A stretch of 64,000 nt of DNA from an uncultured Methanosarcinaceae archaeon (lineage in GTDB: Archaea > Halobacteriota > Methanosarcinia > Methanosarcinales > Methanosarcinaceae): NCBI GenBank assembly GCA_963833425.1, contig CAWHXP010000003.1:352001-416000 (forward strand). Direction: 5' to 3'. Position 1 is the stretch's first letter; the number at the start of each line of letters is the position of its first letter. Under the pieces are notes generated by a model that saw only the letters and a program-made list of their open reading frames with translations, made no database searches and had not been told where the DNA came from. Positions 14,256 to 64,000 of the stretch are shown in pieces. The position numbers and the translations under genes are program-made.

Positions 14256-15199
14256 GAGGATTTCGATAAACTTCGGATTTTATTTCTTAGCAGGAATTTC
14301 TCATATCCTCCCCTCAATTTCTCTCTTTAATTCCTCTTTTTGGCTTTACTTATTCTCAATTCTTTGATTTTAAAGATAGCTTCCGCCATCTTCAATATAG
14401 TTTTTTTATTTTCAATGTTCTCAATTGATGGAGATTATAACAAAAAGCTGTAAAACAACATTTTTAGATTTACTCTTTTAACAGTAGTAACAATAACTTT
14501 CTCCTTTGAATACCCTTTTAGTTTCGGCATAAACTCGTTTCCATTGAGCTTTTTTGAGATGATATTCTAGTTTTTTAATACATCACACATCCAAGAGAAT
14601 ATCCATTTACTGCTCTTTTCACCGTTACACCACTGACTTAGCCACAAAGTATCCTCTGTCCCTATAAACCACTTCATTTTCCTCTGTCAAATCTACATAC
14701 GAATCATGTACTGACACAGTTGTTGTTTTGAATCTTCTGATCAGCTCATAATCTCTAGCTATTATATTATGAAGCTTATATCCAAAGTGAGACTTATCTC
14801 CCTTCTTTGTCCAGGTTCCGTCTTTGCTTCTTCTTGTTTTTGCCTCATCTCTCTGCTTTTGCATGTCCTGGATCTGAATGGATAAAAGTAGCATCCTGAA
14901 TCATTCCCTGCTTTATCTGTAAACCCAGAGCATAAAGTTGGCTTTGCAACTTTCCCTATATTTTCTTTGAAATTCTCGATAATTCTCTCCCTAAATAGCC
15001 ATACAGTAGTACTGTAAGGTACGTATTCCGGAAATCCAAGGAATTTCCTAAAAGAAATTCGATCTATACACTGTTTCTCAAGTTCAAAATCAGAGAGACC
15101 ATGCCATTGTTGTAAAACAAGCATTTTGAACATCACAATGACATCAGTTTCAGGTCTCCCTCTTGAAACGGTTTTGTTGATATACATAGACTCAAGAAT
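14256..15199 (-). mobile_element. IS5-family element, 5'-truncated and frameshifted (copy 1)
   Basis: Transposase fragments LVLQQWHGLSDFELE..DRISFRKFLG, HFGYKLH, YRDRGY; one TIR GAGGATTTCGATAAACT at 14256. Confidence 0.9.
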
Positions 15200-22435: not shown

Positions 22436-23568
22436 GAGTATTTCGATAAACTTCGGATTTTATTTCTTAGCAGGAATTTCTCATATCCTCCCCTCAATTT
22501 CTCTATTTAATTCCTCTTTTTGGCTTTACTTATTCTCAATTCTTTGATTTTAAAGATAGCTTCCGCCATCTTCAATATACTTTTTTTATTTTCAATGTTC
22601 TCAATTGATGGAGATTATAACAAAAAGCTGTAAAACAACATTTTTAGATTTACTCTTTTAACAGTAGTAACAAAAACTCTTCCTGCTTTGAAAATTTCTT
22701 TCGTTACTGAATAAACTCTTTCTCCTGGGACTCTTTTTGAGCTAATTCTCTTATTCCTGAATATATCCTTTATTCCCAGCGTATGTCCTTTGACCGCTCT
22801 TTTCATTGTTGCATTATACCCTTTCGTTTTTGCTCCAAAGTATCCTCTATCCTATAAACCACTTCATTTTCCTCTGTCAAATCTACATACGAATCATGTA
22901 CTGACGCAGTTGTTGTTTGAATCTTCTGATCAGCTCATAATCTCTGTCTATTATATTATGAAACTTATATCCAAAGTGAGACTTACCTCCCTTCTTTGTC
23001 CAAGTACCGTCTCTGCTTCTTCTTGTTTTTGCCTCATCTCTCTGCTTTTGCATGTCCTGGATCTGAATGGATAAAAGTAGCATCCTGAATAATTCCCTGC
23101 TTTATCTGTAAACCCAGAGCAGCAAGTTGGCTTTGCAACTTTCCCCATATTTCCTTTGAAATTCTCGATAATTCTTTCCCTAAATAGCCATACAGTAGTA
23201 CTGTCAGGTACGTATTCCGGAAATCCAAGGAATTTCCTGAAAGAAATTCGATCTATACACGGTTTCTCAAGTTCAAAATCAGAGAGCCCATGCCATTGTT
23301 GTAAAACAAGCATTTTGAACATCACAATGACATCAGTTTCAGGTCTCCCTCATGAAACGGTTTTGTTAATACACATAGACTCAAGAATAATACGAAACGT
23401 TTTCCAATCAATTAAGGAAGCAATTTCAGCAAGCTTATATCCAACAGATTCAAGACGTTTATACTCTTCTTTAAGAGCAAAATCAATAAGAGTTTTCATG
23501 AATATAAATAAATATTTACAAATTTAAAGTCAACCATGCTCAAGAGTAGGGAGTTTATCGAAATTCTC
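22436..23568 (-). mobile_element. IS5-family element, both ends present, frameshifted transposase (copy 2)
   Basis: TIRs GAGTATTTCGATAAACT / AGTTTATCGAAATTCTC; TTGA target duplication at 22432-22435 and 23569-23572; fragmented transposase ORFs. Confidence 0.92.
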
Positions 23569-41939: not shown

Positions 41940-42335
41940 TTGGAAGACGGAAAGCATAAAACTTGGGCTAACTTGGCTGAAGGTTTGAGGAACGGACAAA
42001 TTGGAAAACAGCCATATGACAGACTAATAAAAATACTGATTATTTTACTGGCAGTTTTTTTTGTAGTAGTATTAACAGTGACAGTAGCAAACGTATGGGG
42101 CGTGAAAAGCCCCAAATACGAACAAGGCTAGGAAGCAGGCTACAGAGACAGTTACAGAGCCGTTGTCAACAGCAATTCTTATGATATCAAAACTGGTTTA
42201 GGTCAGAATGTTAGCTATAACGAAGGCTACAGAAACGGCTATGATGAAGGCTATCCTGCAGGCCAATTAGATCTAAAAGGCACCACCAATGGGACAATAA
42301 AGACAAGTGACATTACAAATTTTCAACTAAAATAG
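41940..42335 (+). pseudogene. Signal-peptide protein with YxxGY repeats, interrupted by an in-frame TAG
   Basis: GKQPYDRLIKILIILLAVFFVVVLTVTVA signal, then KYEQG*EAGYRDSY...YNEGYRNGYDEGY; frame stays open from the TAG at 42129 to the TAG at 42333; start uncertain. Confidence 0.6.
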
Positions 42336-42729
42336 CAAAGAGCTAATAAATCTAATCTATCTAGCTTCTTTAGGAAAAGCATAATGTTAGATTCAAGACT
42401 CCCGAAATGACATAAATTATCTTTGATATCCAATCGTTTTTTGATTGTGAAAAATATTATGACAAATTATTTTCCGTTTAGAAATTATTTTCCTTATAAT
42501 TAATTTAAATTTCCTTATAATTAATTTAAAGTAACTTGGATGAGAAAAATGGACATTTAAACGGTATCACCAGTACATAAAAAAAATGAAATTTACATCG
42601 GCAGCATATCATCAGTGCATAACAAGAGAATGGAATTTATAACATAAAGACATTTAGACAGTACCACCAGTACATATAAAGAGAGTGGAATTTACAACAT
42701 AAATTAAATAAATTGGACGTGTTTGTTTA

Positions 42730-42871
42730 ATGGAAAACAAGTACTTAACAGAACAAAAAAGATACTGGTTTTTTTAGTTGTGATTTTTTTTTGTAGCATC
42801 ATTGGTAACTGTGGGAGTGAGTGCTGCAGCCCGTCACGGTGGACATGGTGGACACGGAACATCATCACTAG
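42730..42871 (+). pseudogene. Collapsed paralogue of the His/Gly-rich secreted protein
   Basis: ATGGAAAACAAG (one G missing versus ATGGGAAAACAA); KKILVFLVVIFFVASLVTVGVSAAARHGGHGGHG; same 3' end (TAGATATTAAGAACA) as the 46227 gene; core deleted. Confidence 0.8.
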
Positions 42872-43450
42872 ATATTAAGAACACTTGCCGAGTCTAAGAT
42901 CTATTGAGTATGAAATGAAACAGTAACATGGCCATTTTCAAGGCATTGTGAATAAATTCATGATAAGTTGCCTTGAATTGATGGCTATATTTTTATTTTC
43001 CTTGAAGGTTGGTTCCTCATTGTTTTGTGCGGGTTGAAAATAATTATTCAGTTGAAAAAATTCGTTGAAGGATTAATGCGTATTGTACATCCATTTAGAA
43101 AGTGAATTTATTTAATGTTAAATTCTGGAGAGTTCAAAAATAATAAAAAATAAGAATTAATATCTAATTGTTTCTTGAGTGGGAATAATTTTTTGCGGGA
43201 TTATTTTTCGGTTAGGAACTATTTTTCATAGGATTAATTTAAAATAACTACTAGGATAAAATTATGAAAACCCTACAAATTGTAAGAAGCCTAATAAATA
43301 TCCATAACAGCAGTTGCTGTTAGTGCTGCACACAGCCTCAAGACCACGATCACTACTGGCATTACCATTGGCATCTCATCATAACGATGACTGTTAGGTG
43401 TGGGATTGTTAATAGAATAATGACAAAAACTGCAAAAGAGAGAATTGAAA

Positions 43451-44293
43451 ATGAACAAAACTAAATGTGATACAGCAAGTGGAAAGAATACAATCATAAC
43501 GATTTTAGGAATCACTGCATTGGCGCTTTTAATGCTAATGAGTATCGCAAGTGCGACGCAACTAGCAGATATTCCGAAATTTAACAGCAACAATGTCTCT
43601 AATTTAAATAACACACTTGAAAATGACATAAAAACTCAGGACAAAGCAATTGAAATTAATCCAAAAGATTCAATGGTTTGGATCAATAAAGGACTTGATC
43701 TAGATTATTTAAATAAATCTGAGGAAGCGATAAAAGCATATGACAAAGCAATTGAAATTGACCCACAGAATTCAGATGCTTGGATCAATAAAGGACTTGA
43801 TCTAACTGAGTTGAATAAATCTGATGAAGCAATAAAAGCATATGATAAAGCAATTGAAATTGACCCACAGAATTCAGATGCTTGGATCAATAAAGGACTT
43901 GCTCTAACTGAGTTGAATAAATCTGATGAAGCAATAAAAGCATATGATAAAGCAATTGAAATTGACCCACAGAATTCAGATGCTTGGATCAATAAAGGAC
44001 TTGCTCTAACTGAGTTGAATAAATCTGATGAAGCAATAAAAACATATGATAAAGCAATTGAAATTGACCCACAGGATTCAATAGCTTGGAGCAATAAAGG
44101 AAACGCTTTATATGACCTAAATAAATTTGATGAAGCCATTAAAGTATATGATAAAGCAATTGAAATCGACCCACAGAATTCAGATGCTTGGTATAATAAA
44201 GGAGAGGCTTTAGGTAGATTAAATAAATCCGATGAAGCAATAAAAGCACACGACAAAGCGATTGAAATTGACACACAAAATTCAGAAGCTTAG
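43451..44293 (+). CDS. Secreted/membrane-anchored tetratricopeptide repeat protein (6 TPRs)
   Basis: Hydrophobic N-terminus IITILGITALALLMLMSIASA; 34-aa repeats AWINKGLxLTELNKSDEAIKAYDKAIEIDPQNSD. Confidence 0.9.
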   Translation: MNKTKCDTASGKNTIITILGITALALLMLMSIASATQLADIPKFNSNNVSNLNNTLENDIKTQDKAIEINPKDSMVWINKGLDLDYLNKSEEAIKAYDKAIEIDPQNSDAWINKGLDLTELNKSDEAIKAYDKAIEIDPQNSDAWINKGLALTELNKSDEAIKAYDKAIEIDPQNSDAWINKGLALTELNKSDEAIKTYDKAIEIDPQDSIAWSNKGNALYDLNKFDEAIKVYDKAIEIDPQNSDAWYNKGEALGRLNKSDEAIKAHDKAIEIDTQNSEA

Positions 44294-45400: not shown

Positions 45401-46226
45401 ATATAGTATGCGATTACACACTTTGGGACTTTTTATTATTTCATGGTCTCCCAATTTTTTCTCAATCATTCAAAACAATGAAATTTTAATTTCATTAAAA
45501 TAAATTCTGAAACTTTTCTTTTGGTTTTGAGCGTATTGACTGATTTTCGCTTATGCTACTTCACGATTCTCGCGATGATTCACTTTTACGTTCTTTGTAG
45601 TACTTTTATCCTAATCAGTTATAAAAATCAGATTCCTTGATTTATTGATATGATTTTAAACAAGCTTACATTTTTTAATTTTTTTTGTACTTATTAGGAG
45701 CATAATAATCGATTGAAACTTGTATATTTCTATGAGCTTTGAAATGATCTAGTTTACAGACACATAGGCGAAAATCTGGTTCTTTGCGGTTTGTTGAATT
45801 GAAAATAATTGTCCAGTTGAGAAGTGACCATGCTAAAGATGTAAACATCGAATAGAAACCTGCTTCTGTCACAATAAATTTTTTGAAAACGTATGCCTAT
45901 AAAAAATTATGTTAGTAAATAAAAGTATTAAGTCTTCATCTAAAATAGCAAACAGCTTACAAAATTAACCTGTCTTGCTTCTTTAGAGAAGTGATGGTTT
46001 TAGATTCTGAAGACTTCGAAAAAAAATCATTATTAATATTTAATTGTTTTTCGATTATAAAAAATTTTATGCAAGATTATTTTTCGTTTAGAAACTATTT
46101 TTCGTATAATTAATTTAAAGTAATTTGTATGATAAAAACGGACATATTAGACAGTGTATCATCAGTACAATAAGAAGATAATCGAATTTACAACATAAAT
46201 TAAAATAAATTTTGGAGTCCAAGCAA

Positions 46227-46808
46227 ATGGGAAAACAAATATTTAATAGAAATAGAATAAAAAAGGTACTGGTTACTTTGGTAGCAGTCCTTGTGACAGC
46301 ATCCTTGACAGGAATGGTAGCTGTTGCTGCACATGGTCATGGCGGACACGGTGGACACGGGCATGGACACGGACATGGACACGGGCATGGACATGGGCAT
46401 GAGCATGGACATGGACATGGACATGGGCATGGACACGGGCATGGACATGGGCATCATCACTTCCACCATTGGCATGATCACAGGCATCACAGCTATCATG
46501 ATCACTACTATGATGGCGTGTACTTCGCAGGTTATGAATGGGTATATAATCCTGTTACTCTAGTGTGGGACTGGACTTACATAGGCGGAGATGACGGCGA
46601 CGTTGTAGCAACACCCGTTGTAGCAACACCCGTTGTAGCAACACCCGTTGTAGCAACACCCGTTGTAGCAACTCCTGTTGCAGAAACACCCGTTGTGGTA
46701 GGCGAATATGACGGCGGATACTATGACGGCGGATACTATGGACATGGACACGGGCATGGACATGGACATGGCGGACACGGACATGGGCATGGCGGACACA
46801 GACATTGA
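46227..46808 (+). CDS. Secreted His/Gly-rich low-complexity protein
   Basis: Signal peptide, (HG)n tract, aromatic block, (VVATP)x5, YDGGY x2, His/Gly tail; third-position variation (CAT/CAC, GGA/GGG/GGC) supports this frame; GGAG RBS. Confidence 0.85.
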   Translation: MGKQIFNRNRIKKVLVTLVAVLVTASLTGMVAVAAHGHGGHGGHGHGHGHGHGHGHGHEHGHGHGHGHGHGHGHGHHHFHHWHDHRHHSYHDHYYDGVYFAGYEWVYNPVTLVWDWTYIGGDDGDVVATPVVATPVVATPVVATPVVATPVAETPVVVGEYDGGYYDGGYYGHGHGHGHGHGGHGHGHGGHRH

Positions 46809-47441
46809 CACGGTGGTCATGGAGGACACGGGGGACACGGCCATCATAGATAGATATTAAGAACATTCTCCGAGTCTAAGAGCTGTTGAGTATGAAATGA
46901 AACAGTATCATGGCCATTTTCAAGGCATTAAGAATAAATTCCTGATAAAATGCCTTGAATTGATGGCTGTATTCTTATTTTCATATAAGTTTGGTTCTTC
47001 GTTGTTTTGTGCGGGTTGAAAATAATCATCCAGTTGAAAACTGACCATACAAAGAGATGAAGAAAGATTATGCATATTGCGTACTCACTTCGAAAGTGGA
47101 AGTATAATCCCCAACTTAATATAGTAAAGTTCGGAAATAAAAAAATCATCATTAATATTTAATTGTTTTTGATTATGAAAAATATTATGCGGTATTATTT
47201 TTTGTTTAGAAACTATTTTTCATATAATTAATTTAAAATAACTACTGGGATAAAATTATGAAAATCCTACAAATTGTAGAGGCCTAATAAATATCCAGAA
47301 CAGCAGTGGCTGCTATGGTGCTGCACATCGTCGTCACGACCACTATCCTGGATCACCATTGGCATCATCATCATAACGATGACTGTTGGAGGTAGGATTG
47401 TTAATAGAATAATGACAAAAATTGCAAAAGAGAGGATTAAA

Positions 47442-47772
47442 ATGACCAAAACTAAATTTGATACAGCAAGTGGAAAGCATAATAGATAGCTGTTTTAGGA
47501 ATCACTGCACTAGCACTTTTAATGAAATGATTATCGCAAGTGCTGAGCAACTTGCAGATATACCAAACTCTAGCAGCAACAATGTCTCTAATTTAAATAA
47601 CGCACTTGAAAATGACATAAAAACTCAGGACAAAGCGATTGGAATTAACCCGCTGAACTCAACGGCTTGGAAAAATAAAGGACTTGTTTTAGATAATTTA
47701 AACAAATCAGATGAAGTCATTAAAGCATATGACAAAGCAATTGAAATTGACTCGCAAAACTTAAAAGCTTAG
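47442..47772 (+). pseudogene. TPR protein paralogue, early stop and collapsed repeats
   Basis: MTKTKFDTASGKHNR* followed by about one remaining TPR; colinear with the 43451 gene. Confidence 0.85.
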
Positions 47773-47921
47773 CACAATAAAAAGAATTCATCTAAAGAAA
47801 ATAAATCCCATTAACAGATGATTATACAATAAAGGAACTTTACCTAAATAGATTAGATATATCCAATTTATAGGTTGAATAGTACTTAATTTTATTTATT
47901 TTTTTTGCGAGATAAAATATA

Positions 47922-49057
47922 AAGGATTTCGATAAACTTCGGTTTTATTTCTTAGCAGTAATTTCTCGTATCTTCCCCTCAATTTCTCTATTTAATTCCT
48001 CTTTTTGGCTTTACTTATTCTCAATTCTTTGATTTTAAAGATAGCTTCCGCTATCTTCAATATACTTTTTTTTTATTTTCAATGTCCTTAATTGATAGAG
48101 ATTATAACAAAAAGCCGTACACAACATTTTTAGATTTACTATTTTAACAGTAGTAACAAAAACTCTTCCTGCTTTGAAAATTTCTTTCGTTACTGAATAA
48201 ACTCTTTCCCCTTGGACTCTTTTTGAGTTAATTCCCTTATTTCTTAATATATCCTTTATTCCCAACGTATGTCCTTTGACCGCTCTTTTCATTGTTGCAT
48301 TATACCCTTTCGTTTTTGCTCCAAAGTATCCTCTGTCCCTATAAACCACTTCGTTTTCCTCTGTTATATCTACATACGAATCATGTACGGACGCAGTTGT
48401 TGTTTTGAATCTTCTGATCAGCTCATAATCTCTGTCTATTATATTATGACGCTTATATCCAAAGTGAGACTTACCTCCCTCCTTTGTCCATGGTTCCATC
48501 TCTGCTTCTTCTTGTTTTTGCCTCATCTCTCTGCTTTTGCATGTCCTGGATCTGAATGGATAAAAGTAGCATCCTGAATAATTCCCTGCTTTATCTGTAA
48601 ACCCAGAGCATAAAGTTGGCTTTGCAACTTTACCCATATTTTCTTTGAAATTCTCGATAATTCTCTCCCTAAATAGCCATACAGTAGTACTGTCAGGCAT
48701 GTATTCCGGAAATCCAAGGAATTTCCTAAAAGAAATTCGATCTATACAATGTTTCTCAAGTTCAAAATCAGAGAGACCATGCCATTGTTGTAAAACAAGC
48801 ATTTTGAATATCACAATGACATCAGTTTTAGGTATCCCTCCTGAAACGGTTTTGTTGATATATATAGACTCAAGAATAATACGAAACGCTTTCCAATCAA
48901 TTCAGGAAGCAATTTCAGCAAGCTTATCTCCAACAGATTCAAGACGTTTATACTCTTCTTTAAGAGCAAAATCAGTAAGAGTTTTCATGAATATACATAA
49001 ATATTGACAAATTTAAAACCAACCATGCTCAAGAGCAGGGAGTTTATCGAAATTCTC
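47922..49057 (-). mobile_element. IS5-family element, both ends present, frameshifted (copy 4)
   Basis: TIRs AAGGATTTCGATAAACT / AGTTTATCGAAATTCTC flanked by TATA; transposase ORF 48035-48814 with a scrambled middle. Confidence 0.92.
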
Positions 49058-62956: not shown

Positions 62957-64000
62957 TCATAATACTTTGGCTGCCCTATGTTTGAATTCTTGAGATTCCT
63001 CTTCAAAGCCTTTAGAATTTTCATTAATGACATCTTCAAACTCTTCAGAATCTACATCAAGAGATGACTCCTCTTCAGAAATTGTCCCAATGGCCTCTGA
63101 ACCCAATATCTTCAAATCTGAGACTCCTCTTGAAAGCTTGGTAGCAAGGAAACACGCAGTATAGCTCCCCTTAACCAAGGAAACTTCCTCTGGGGTTCCT
63201 ATAGCAATAATTTCTCCGCCAGCATTTCCACCTTCGGGACCTAGATCGATTACATAATCTGCTGATTTAATCACGTCTAGGTTATGCTCGATCACAACTA
63301 CTGTATTATTTTTTGTAACTAAACCATTGAGAACCGAAATCAGTTTTTGAACATCATGAAAATGCAGACCTGTAGTGGGCTCATCTAGAAGATAGATTGT
63401 CATTCCAGTGCCCTTTTTGGAGAGCTCTCTTGTAAGCTTGATTCGCTGCGCTTCCCCTCCAGAAAGGGTTGTTGAACTTTGGCCAAGTTTGATATAACCA
63501 AGCCCGACCCTTGTTAAGGTATCGAGCTTACCTTTAATACCAGGGATATTTTTGAAATGTTCTGAAGCTTCTTCTACCGTCATATCCAGAACTTCTGCAA
63601 TCGATTTGCCCCTATACTTTACTTCTAGGGTTTCCTGATTGTAACGCGTACCTTTACATTCCTCACACTCAATATATACGTCAGGCAGAAAGTTCATTTC
63701 AATTTTTATCAATCCGTCTCCCTGGCAGGCCTCACAGCGTCCTCCCTTTACGTTGAAAGAAAAACGCCCACTTTTGTAACCCCGGATCTTTGCTTCCTTC
63801 GTTTCGGCAAAGGCCTGCCTGATAGTATCAAAAACTTTTGTATAGGTTGCGGGATTCGAGCGTGGAGTCCTACCAATTGGACTCTGGTCGATAACGATTG
63901 CCTTGTCAATCTCAGAATCAAAAACTAAAGTATCATAGTTCCCAGGTGTTACACTCGAATTATATATCTTTTTCATCAGGGCTTTGTACAGAGTATCATA
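62957..64000 (-). CDS. uvrA: Excinuclease ABC subunit A, C-terminal part (runs off window end)
   Basis: [17 protein letters not shown], zinc finger [34 protein letters not shown]. Confidence 0.96.

Follow-up and report, generated by a model that had tools for sequence, protein, structure and literature searches.

The histidine- and glycine-rich gene that starts at position 46227 of the window (the whole stretch of 64,000 nucleotides analysed here, G000:C3:352001-416000) belongs to a family that evolves by birth and death within one clade: a single leader recurs on many low-complexity cargoes, and modules are exchanged between genes. In agreement with a preliminary description of this DNA, the sequence supports a modular, His/Gly-rich product that would be secreted. 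The leader family of exported repeat proteins most likely builds or stiffens the outer matrix of the cells. For the window protein itself we consider the chances about even that it is an exported, soluble and mostly disordered protein of the outer matrix or capsule, in which a hairpin serves as sticker and the His segments bind the anionic capsule and metal.

Coding status of the gene and layout of its locus

The features of the gene and of its surroundings are the following.

46227..46808, plus strand: open reading frame as assembled, 193 aa, with an in-frame TGA at its end
46227..46328, plus strand: family leader, Sec-type signal peptide, aa 1-34, placed by leader alignment (AlphaFold helix 8-37)
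46332..46454, plus strand: (HG)n tract, aa 36-76, predicted to be disordered; a variable linker that is not conserved in the family
46455..46580, plus strand: conserved His/Tyr/Trp block, aa 77-118, with a His cluster, a small YY-xG-xY turn and then the hairpin
46533..46580, plus strand: predicted 16-residue tryptophan-zipper-like beta-hairpin, Y103-Y118 (strands 103-108 and 113-118)
46584..46703, plus strand: acidic hinge, (VVATP)x5 and VAETPVVVG spacer, aa 120-159
46704..46805, plus strand: YDGGY units and His/Gly tail, aa 160-193
46806..46853, plus strand: premature TGA, followed by 14 further in-frame His/Gly codons and the ancestral TAG
42730..42871, plus strand: collapsed tandem copy, a broken leader joined directly to the last His/Gly units, with the block gone
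43445..44293, plus strand: TPR protein with a signal-like N-terminus, in the duplicated unit; broken copy at about 47443-47800
46024..46145, plus strand: AT-rich repeated module upstream of the gene; copies at 42414, 43148, 46024 and 47142
47296..47415, plus strand (approximate limits): decayed gene of the Cys-closed hairpin type; second decayed copy near 43300-43410

The frame starts at ATG 46227, preceded by GGAG at 46214-46217. Its 193-aa product contains 43 Gly and 40 His (20.7%, versus 2.0% in the long ORFs of the genome), as had been estimated before (193 aa, about 40 His, ~20%); His makes up 25% of the mature chain. All parts named in the preliminary description are present: the signal-like N-terminus, the (HG)n tract (longest perfect run, eight), the His cluster, the aromatic block, the acidic hinge, five VVATP repeats, two YDGGY units and the His/Gly tail. 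The extent that it gave, 46227..46853, needs correction, as the 193-aa frame closes at TGA 46806-46808. The same frame runs on to TAG 46851-46853. In alignments the tandem copy terminates at this very codon (its stop lies at 42869), and the syntenic gene of metagenome locus L084 ends there too, after the same kind of His/Gly tail. These alignments indicate that TGA 46806 is a premature stop or an assembly error, and the ancestral product is, judged from the sequence, 208 aa long. An assembly error is quite possible because no contig across the TGA was obtained from three DNA sequencing runs with small shares of matching sequence, and because uvrA of the same assembly lies in three frames. The latter gene (named by sequence; window 62957-64000 and G000:C3 ~414.9-418.0 kb, minus strand) is split into pieces of 240, 173 and 634 aa. 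The assembly probably carries indel errors, and broken genes described here need read support. Over 46196-46346 and 46324-46474 the assembly agrees without a single difference with short contigs from two other runs, so neither the leader nor the HG tract is an assembly artefact. Read-through of the internal stop, by pyrrolysine insertion or otherwise, was rejected: the codon is TGA, and homologues have no stop there. No RNA run with matching sequence was found in the sequencing-run look-up.

The ORF is a real coding gene. GC fractions are 0.75, 0.43 and 0.34 at its codon positions 1, 2 and 3, against 36% GC for the genome. Synonymous variation in the repeats, previously taken as proof that the frame is maintained, is a weak argument: VVATP copies are 100, 100 and 98% identical as DNA, and Gly and His codon use is roughly that of the genome. 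Coding status is better backed by the dN/dS of about 0.19 on the block and by intact homologues elsewhere. A promoter and terminator scan with bacterial models, which are ill-suited to archaea, gave results at chance level.

The gene lies in a tandem duplication (41.9-47.9 kb) whose unit consists of the His-rich gene, a decayed Cys-type hairpin gene and a secreted TPR gene. In the first copy the His-rich gene is collapsed and the TPR gene whole; in the second the reverse holds. The AT-rich module (~95 nt, with a TATA-like end) occurs four times in the 42.4-47.3 kb region and 143 times in the genome (4.07 Mb, 35.8% GC, 80% complete). Twenty-four of the 143 copies lie within 600 nt upstream of a leader gene, where about 0.75% per copy would be expected by chance. 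A further leader-family gene, with YxxGY repeats, is found at 41940-42336 on the plus strand and contains an in-frame TAG at 42129-42131. Since the intact paralogues C11:32205 and C15:178799 carry Tyr at that site, decay or error appears likelier than pyrrolysine. Three related transposase-like remnants were recognised by eye (14762-15187, 22951-23325 and 48035-48814), one of them just downstream of the duplicated unit.

A leader family expanded in one clade

The leader has the make-up of a Sec signal peptide cleaved by signal peptidase I, with a basic n-region, a hydrophobic h-region and small residues at -3/-1, as judged from the sequence and the leader alignment. The 193-aa protein contains no Cys and consequently no lipobox, and it has no C-terminal anchor. 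The Tat route was rejected, the leader being without a twin-Arg consensus. By homology cleavage would occur after A34, and cleavage after A35 is possible. Pro comes directly after the final Ala of the leader in both L030, the syntenic orthologue (which starts Ala-Pro), and L045, the nearest paralogue. Signal peptidase I does not accept Pro at +1, so that these proteins would be cut one residue earlier and the window protein, by homology, would begin A-H-G-H. The H-G-H start proposed before, an ATCUN-type site, is possible for the window protein itself if it is cut after A35. As a family feature it did not stand, because X-X-His starts only 3 of 33 intact homologues at the canonical site and 6 of 33 at any candidate site, cleavage sites being assigned by a heuristic small-X-Ala rule. 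Three or more HG units are likewise found in only 2 of the 33.

An iterated signal-peptide profile located the leader in 97 places of the genome, 28 of them with fewer than 30 mature residues, 41 with a low-complexity cargo and 28 with another cargo. Low complexity thus characterises 41 of the 69 cargoes of at least 30 mature residues, versus 27 of 1517 background ORFs (at least 200 aa). The cargoes comprise Gly-, His-, Tyr-, Pro-, Cys- or Asn-rich repeats and a few folded domains, and only 11 of the 69 contain 10% His or more.

The leader is present in 57-58 of the 59 genomes of the genus, in very different numbers. With the first profile 94-129 were counted in each of five genomes (G000, which holds the window, G019, G064, G065 and G067), 43 in the fragmented G055 and 0-30 in the other 53. 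As a check on bias, a leader profile was built from ten out-of-clade sequences only (E 1e-5, 134 candidates scored). The expansion held: this profile gave at least 67, 73, 71, 72 and 105 in the five high genomes and 23 in the sixth, versus 0-28 (median 10) in the 53 others. By UvrB identity, G019, G064, G065, G067 and G055 are the five genomes closest to G000 (93-95% versus at most 89%), so the six form one clade with one expansion event. Other Methanosarcina thus have the same leader, but only one clade shows the hairpin block and the roughly seven- to tenfold expansion.

Some further leader genes were noted. Other short Cys-closed motifs after a Gly-rich arm (for example C-x-W-V-GG-x-N-W-L-C and C-Y-I-V-NG-A-L-V-C) occur in G000 at C10:106347, C11:38244, C10:89235, C10:88555 and C2:446643 and in P0055 and P0058, so the design recurs with several hairpins. 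The same leader precedes folded-looking domains, by eye esterase-like, cupredoxin-like, PEBP-like and cytochrome b5-like (G000 C7:344655, C8:392406, C10:5502, C8:439511, C8:143716 and C6:107546), which suggests that it may recruit enzymes for export. The cargo of one out-of-clade leader gene, L017:1504-1791 (G005), is almost purely (HPYY)n.

The conserved block and its predicted hairpin

No Pfam or NCBIfam family was found at cut-off for the window protein or for 20 relatives and look-alikes, in line with the earlier statement that no described archaeal family with this architecture was recognised, and ESM Atlas gave no result for the window protein or a homologue. The Pfam GRP family (PF07172) was rejected at 13.1 bits against a cut-off of 30, three relatives scoring 14-19 bits. 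A whole-protein homology search was swamped by His/Gly composition, with two true members (P0001 and P0018) among the 11 of 30 hits inspected. Homologues that conserve the aromatic block were nevertheless found. A block profile matched 6 of the 59 genomes of the genus, with 5-21 matches each and all in one clade; the other 53, M. barkeri and other cultured species among them, gave no match. Among 251 genomes drawn from the class, the block is in two, both in the clade. A pattern for the Tyr type only identified 10 loci in five Methanosarcina-type MAGs of the all-species collection. The named relatives are Methanosarcina or Methanosarcinaceae MAGs, bog and fen MAGs among them. Searched against 1.84 billion representatives, the block profile gave 21 hits: 17 family members, three long kelch-type proteins (two confirmed by Pfam) and one spurious frame. 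A metagenome scan yielded 47 loci, 42 of which (L057-L098) have a Tyr-type block, with leader and block in one frame in 24 of these.

Two bacterial-looking exported Gly/His-rich proteins with a terminal Cys-closed Trp hairpin (P0024 and P0011, alphaproteobacterial-looking) also have no Pfam or NCBIfam name at cut-off. They were rejected as family members; they look analogous, and the block profile matched neither. A kelch repeat was rejected too: it has several four-strand blades where the window protein has a single hairpin, the window protein gave no kelch match, and the kelch proteins match only the loop motif.

The block is conserved amid variable surroundings. Six or more His precede the hairpin within 27 residues in 31 of 33 intact Tyr-type homologues (some near-identical), and four His are invariant in 10 aligned blocks. 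In the same 33 the linker ranges from 0 to 205 residues of unrelated repeats; mature His content varies from 1 to 29% across homologues. The block is C-terminal in Cys-type genes, internal in Tyr-type genes and present in both placements in P0031. It is fused to YVTN repeats (TIGR02276, above cut-off) in all three long homologues scanned (L057, L068 and L078); the YVTN repeat occurs in Methanosarcina surface proteins.

These data bear on the proposal, put forward in the preliminary description, of a secreted metal store or scavenger. In its fuller form this would be a dedicated extracellular protein whose His tracts capture Ni, Co, Zn or Cu, either to supply uptake or to detoxify the metal, and whose hairpin is a folded metal site or a handle for a receptor. 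Clusters such as those conserved before the hairpin bind divalent metals in vitro, and a mature chain with 25% His is in keeping with such a role. However, the ATCUN start and the HG tract are not conserved, the His content of homologues falls as low as 1%, and few of the leader cargoes are His-rich. Moreover, no metal transporter, hydrogenase-maturation or Ni-regulator gene was found in 25 neighbour clusters (51 loci, many on short contigs; 25 of 34 clusters were scanned, the other nine being antisense or shifted frames or family members). Relatives from bog and fen may also speak against it, since acid water leaves most His protonated and a poor ligand for Ni. We therefore regard a dedicated metal scavenger as unlikely.

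Pooled pairwise over 28 codons, dN/dS was 0.19 for ten Tyr-type and 0.31 for nine Cys-type copies, values to be read with the pairs not being independent and the block having been picked for its conservation. They indicate that the block is under purifying selection. This weighs against a mostly neutral spread of the leader cassette in a repeat-rich, gene-poor genome, in which the cargoes would be slippage products with little or no function and the present copy would be decaying. The premature TGA and the collapsed and decayed copies alongside are what such a spread would leave; about 12 of the 42 metagenome block loci are, by eye, broken away from contig ends, and ORFs of at least 300 aa cover only 1.22 of the 4.07 Mb. 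Yet besides the low dN/dS values, the Cys pair is kept, the block is retained in six genomes and in frame with the leader at 24 of 42 loci, and the GC content is structured by codon position, all of which makes neutral spread very unlikely in our judgement.

The protein could also belong to a diversifying conflict system, as a secreted antimicrobial, an opsonin-like protein or a decoy for viruses or predators, with cationic His arms and the Trp hairpin acting on membranes or particles. Conflict families typically keep the leader constant while the cargo is hypervariable, expand within single clades and often lose genes, and all of this is seen here. Trpzip gels are described as antimicrobial (PMC10593748) and the sea-urchin SpTransformer family as having a Gly-rich/His-rich mosaic design (PMC5940198). 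But selection on the block is purifying and not diversifying, hairpins of the Tyr type are acidic, all 28 having Glu at position 2, the 25 neighbour clusters contain no conserved immunity-like, protease or transporter gene, and there was no match in 50,697 phage records. A role in conflict thus seems quite unlikely.

AlphaFold predicts, apart from the signal helix, strands 103-108 and 113-118 (pLDDT 82-85) and has low confidence elsewhere; modelled alone, the block gave the same hairpin, with pLDDT 82-86 over the two models. The only hit of the mixed block profile among PDB sequences was the designed hairpin xtz1 (2ORU; E 1.6, not significant), which also appeared in Foldseek (E 9.8, rmsd 2.1 over 16 columns, again not significant). 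The Tyr-type profile gave four chance rows in PDB sequences. Neither Foldseek with two models nor a wide VIA-align search with the block model found a structure match at E 0.001 or Z 2, as expected for a hairpin of only 16 residues. A four-copy complex prediction of the block scored 0.00, which is evidence neither way.

The cross-strand aromatic register of a tryptophan zipper, W-x-W...W-x-W around a short loop, is present. The four positions are W in 27/28, Y in 26/28, W in 27/28 and W in 26/28 Tyr-type hairpins, and W in 16/16, 14/16, 14/16 and 14/16 Cys-type hairpins, counts obtained with a search pattern that itself demands aromatics at the register positions. In 44 distinct 16-mers the end pairs are Tyr/Tyr (19), Cys/Cys (11), Tyr/His (7), Asp/Cys (3, with the Cys shifted by one), mixed Cys/Tyr (2) and other (2). 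This distribution fits a cross-strand pair that one subfamily would form as a disulfide and the other from two aromatic residues, Cys/Cys versus Tyr/Tyr being in effect one split between two subfamilies and not independent covariation. The residue before the third aromatic, which by the trpzip1 sequence we take to correspond to trpzip position 8, is Val in 24/28 Tyr-type and Gln in 12/16 Cys-type hairpins, and Lys in xtz1. According to PMC10593748, Lys at trpzip position 8 is an aggregation gatekeeper that hinders aggregation, and in simulation Val at this position gives the most fibrous aggregates.

The predicted two-strand hairpin thus resembles designed trpzip hairpins (xtz1, 2ORU; the hydrogelators of PMC10593748) in its W-x-W/Y-N-P-x-T-x-x-W-x-W register and in the start of its loop. 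Unlike them it is natural and lies within an exported protein. A His cluster and an end pair, either Cys/Cys or Tyr/Tyr, extend it, and Tyr-type hairpins carry Tyr in place of one of the four Trp. The resemblance is statistically weak and is one of convergence, not homology.

A putative outer-matrix protein and its relation to known systems

Taken as a matrix protein, the product would act in several steps. It would be exported by the Sec route and lose its leader, and the ~40-aa block is predicted to fold as a tryptophan-zipper-type hairpin with the His cluster in front, which its conservation supports. The hairpin may then work as a portable sticker that stacks on its own copies, on other family members or on capsule glycan, with the His/Gly arms and the Pro/Thr spacer as flexible linkers. 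Protonated arms would bind anionic methanochondroitin and unprotonated arms Zn, Co, Ni or Cu. As the linkers would bind capsule or metals depending on protonation state, metal binding would be a material property and not a dedicated uptake route. Reuse of the one leader on many low-complexity cargoes, with swapping of modules, was shown by comparison.

Several findings count for the matrix reading: the leader in 97 places, with 41 of 69 cargoes of low complexity; a block that is kept while linkers are freely replaced; a hairpin with pLDDT 82-85 amid an otherwise low-confidence model; the dN/dS of 0.19 and 0.31; the YVTN fusions; the end-pair types; the 2ORU hit; and Val or Gln before the third aromatic. 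According to PMC12369344, type I Methanosarcina form aggregates within methanochondroitin, and this glycan sequesters metal. The anionic Methanosarcina capsule holds Co and Zn (PMC12369344; bioRxiv 10.64898/2026.02.14.705942), and both metals map to the capsule of M. barkeri (bioRxiv 10.64898/2026.02.14.705942). In the accessible text of these two sources, glycan and nucleic acids, not proteins, are credited. Several points stand against the matrix reading, beside the limits given above for the 2ORU matches, the end pairs and the dN/dS values. The capsule studies were made on cultured species such as M. barkeri, where the block was not found. The W-x-Y-N-P-x-T-x-x-W hairpin is a generic stable motif, kelch repeats accounting for 3 of the 21 profile hits. 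Finally, 28 of the 97 leader hits having fewer than 30 mature residues fits weak constraint, though some of these will be assembly errors. Both the matrix and the metal-store reading are putative, and the former fares better.

Exported Gly/His-rich low-complexity proteins are an already known kind, represented by sulfur globule proteins and by plant and animal structural proteins. The sulfur globule proteins SgpA, SgpB and SgpC of Allochromatium are small, signal-peptide-bearing structural proteins with a gene number that varies per genome, and are likened to keratins and plant wall proteins (PMC10386293). Unlike the present family they are bacterial, periplasmic and tied to sulfur oxidation, whereas the host here is a methanogen. 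Identity with sulfur globule proteins was rejected on account of the methanogen host and as no such Pfam match was obtained for 23 proteins scanned, nor any in NCBIfam. We know of no trpzip block in sulfur globule proteins. Plant glycine-rich wall proteins (GRP PF07172), in a likeness that is compositional only, and the His/Gly structural proteins of squid beak and Nereis jaw similarly combine a signal peptide with a Gly/His/Tyr low-complexity chain and form multigene families; they differ in being eukaryotic, with no shared ancestry seen. Helicobacter Hpn and ATCUN peptides have high His in common with the window protein. Hpn, however, is cytoplasmic and Cys/His-rich, whereas the window protein carries a leader, and its family conserves neither the ATCUN start nor the HG tract. 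What is new is the growth of the family to about 100 genes across the clade, together with a natural trpzip-like module; the preliminary description had missed both the leader-sharing genes and the zipper-like nature of the block. A search of main texts, few of them from subscription journals, found no description of the gene family or of a natural tryptophan zipper.

A further-reaching possibility, which we put forward as doubtful, is that the uncultured wetland Methanosarcina clade has a proteinaceous outer matrix of about 100 leader-sharing proteins, in which a naturally evolved tryptophan zipper drives the assembly of fibres and His arms cross-link it with metal or anionic capsule. If so, this matrix would be the archaeal equivalent of the proteins of beaks and eggshells or of those associated with keratin, and its zipper would match, in nature, a motif familiar from peptide design. 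Modules of 16 and 40 residues are within reach of chemical synthesis, making folding, assembly and metal binding testable without culture; for peptide and materials design, a natural trpzip that comes in Cys/Cys and Tyr/Tyr variants is useful. The Methanosarcina envelope is described as an S-layer plus methanochondroitin, and the words 'histidine', 'secreted', 'amyloid' and 'hypothetical' are absent from the accessible text of the review PMC12369344. A set of about 100 exported repeat proteins would mean that protein, too, belongs to this picture, in a clade that has bog and fen members; such organisms matter for wetland methane.
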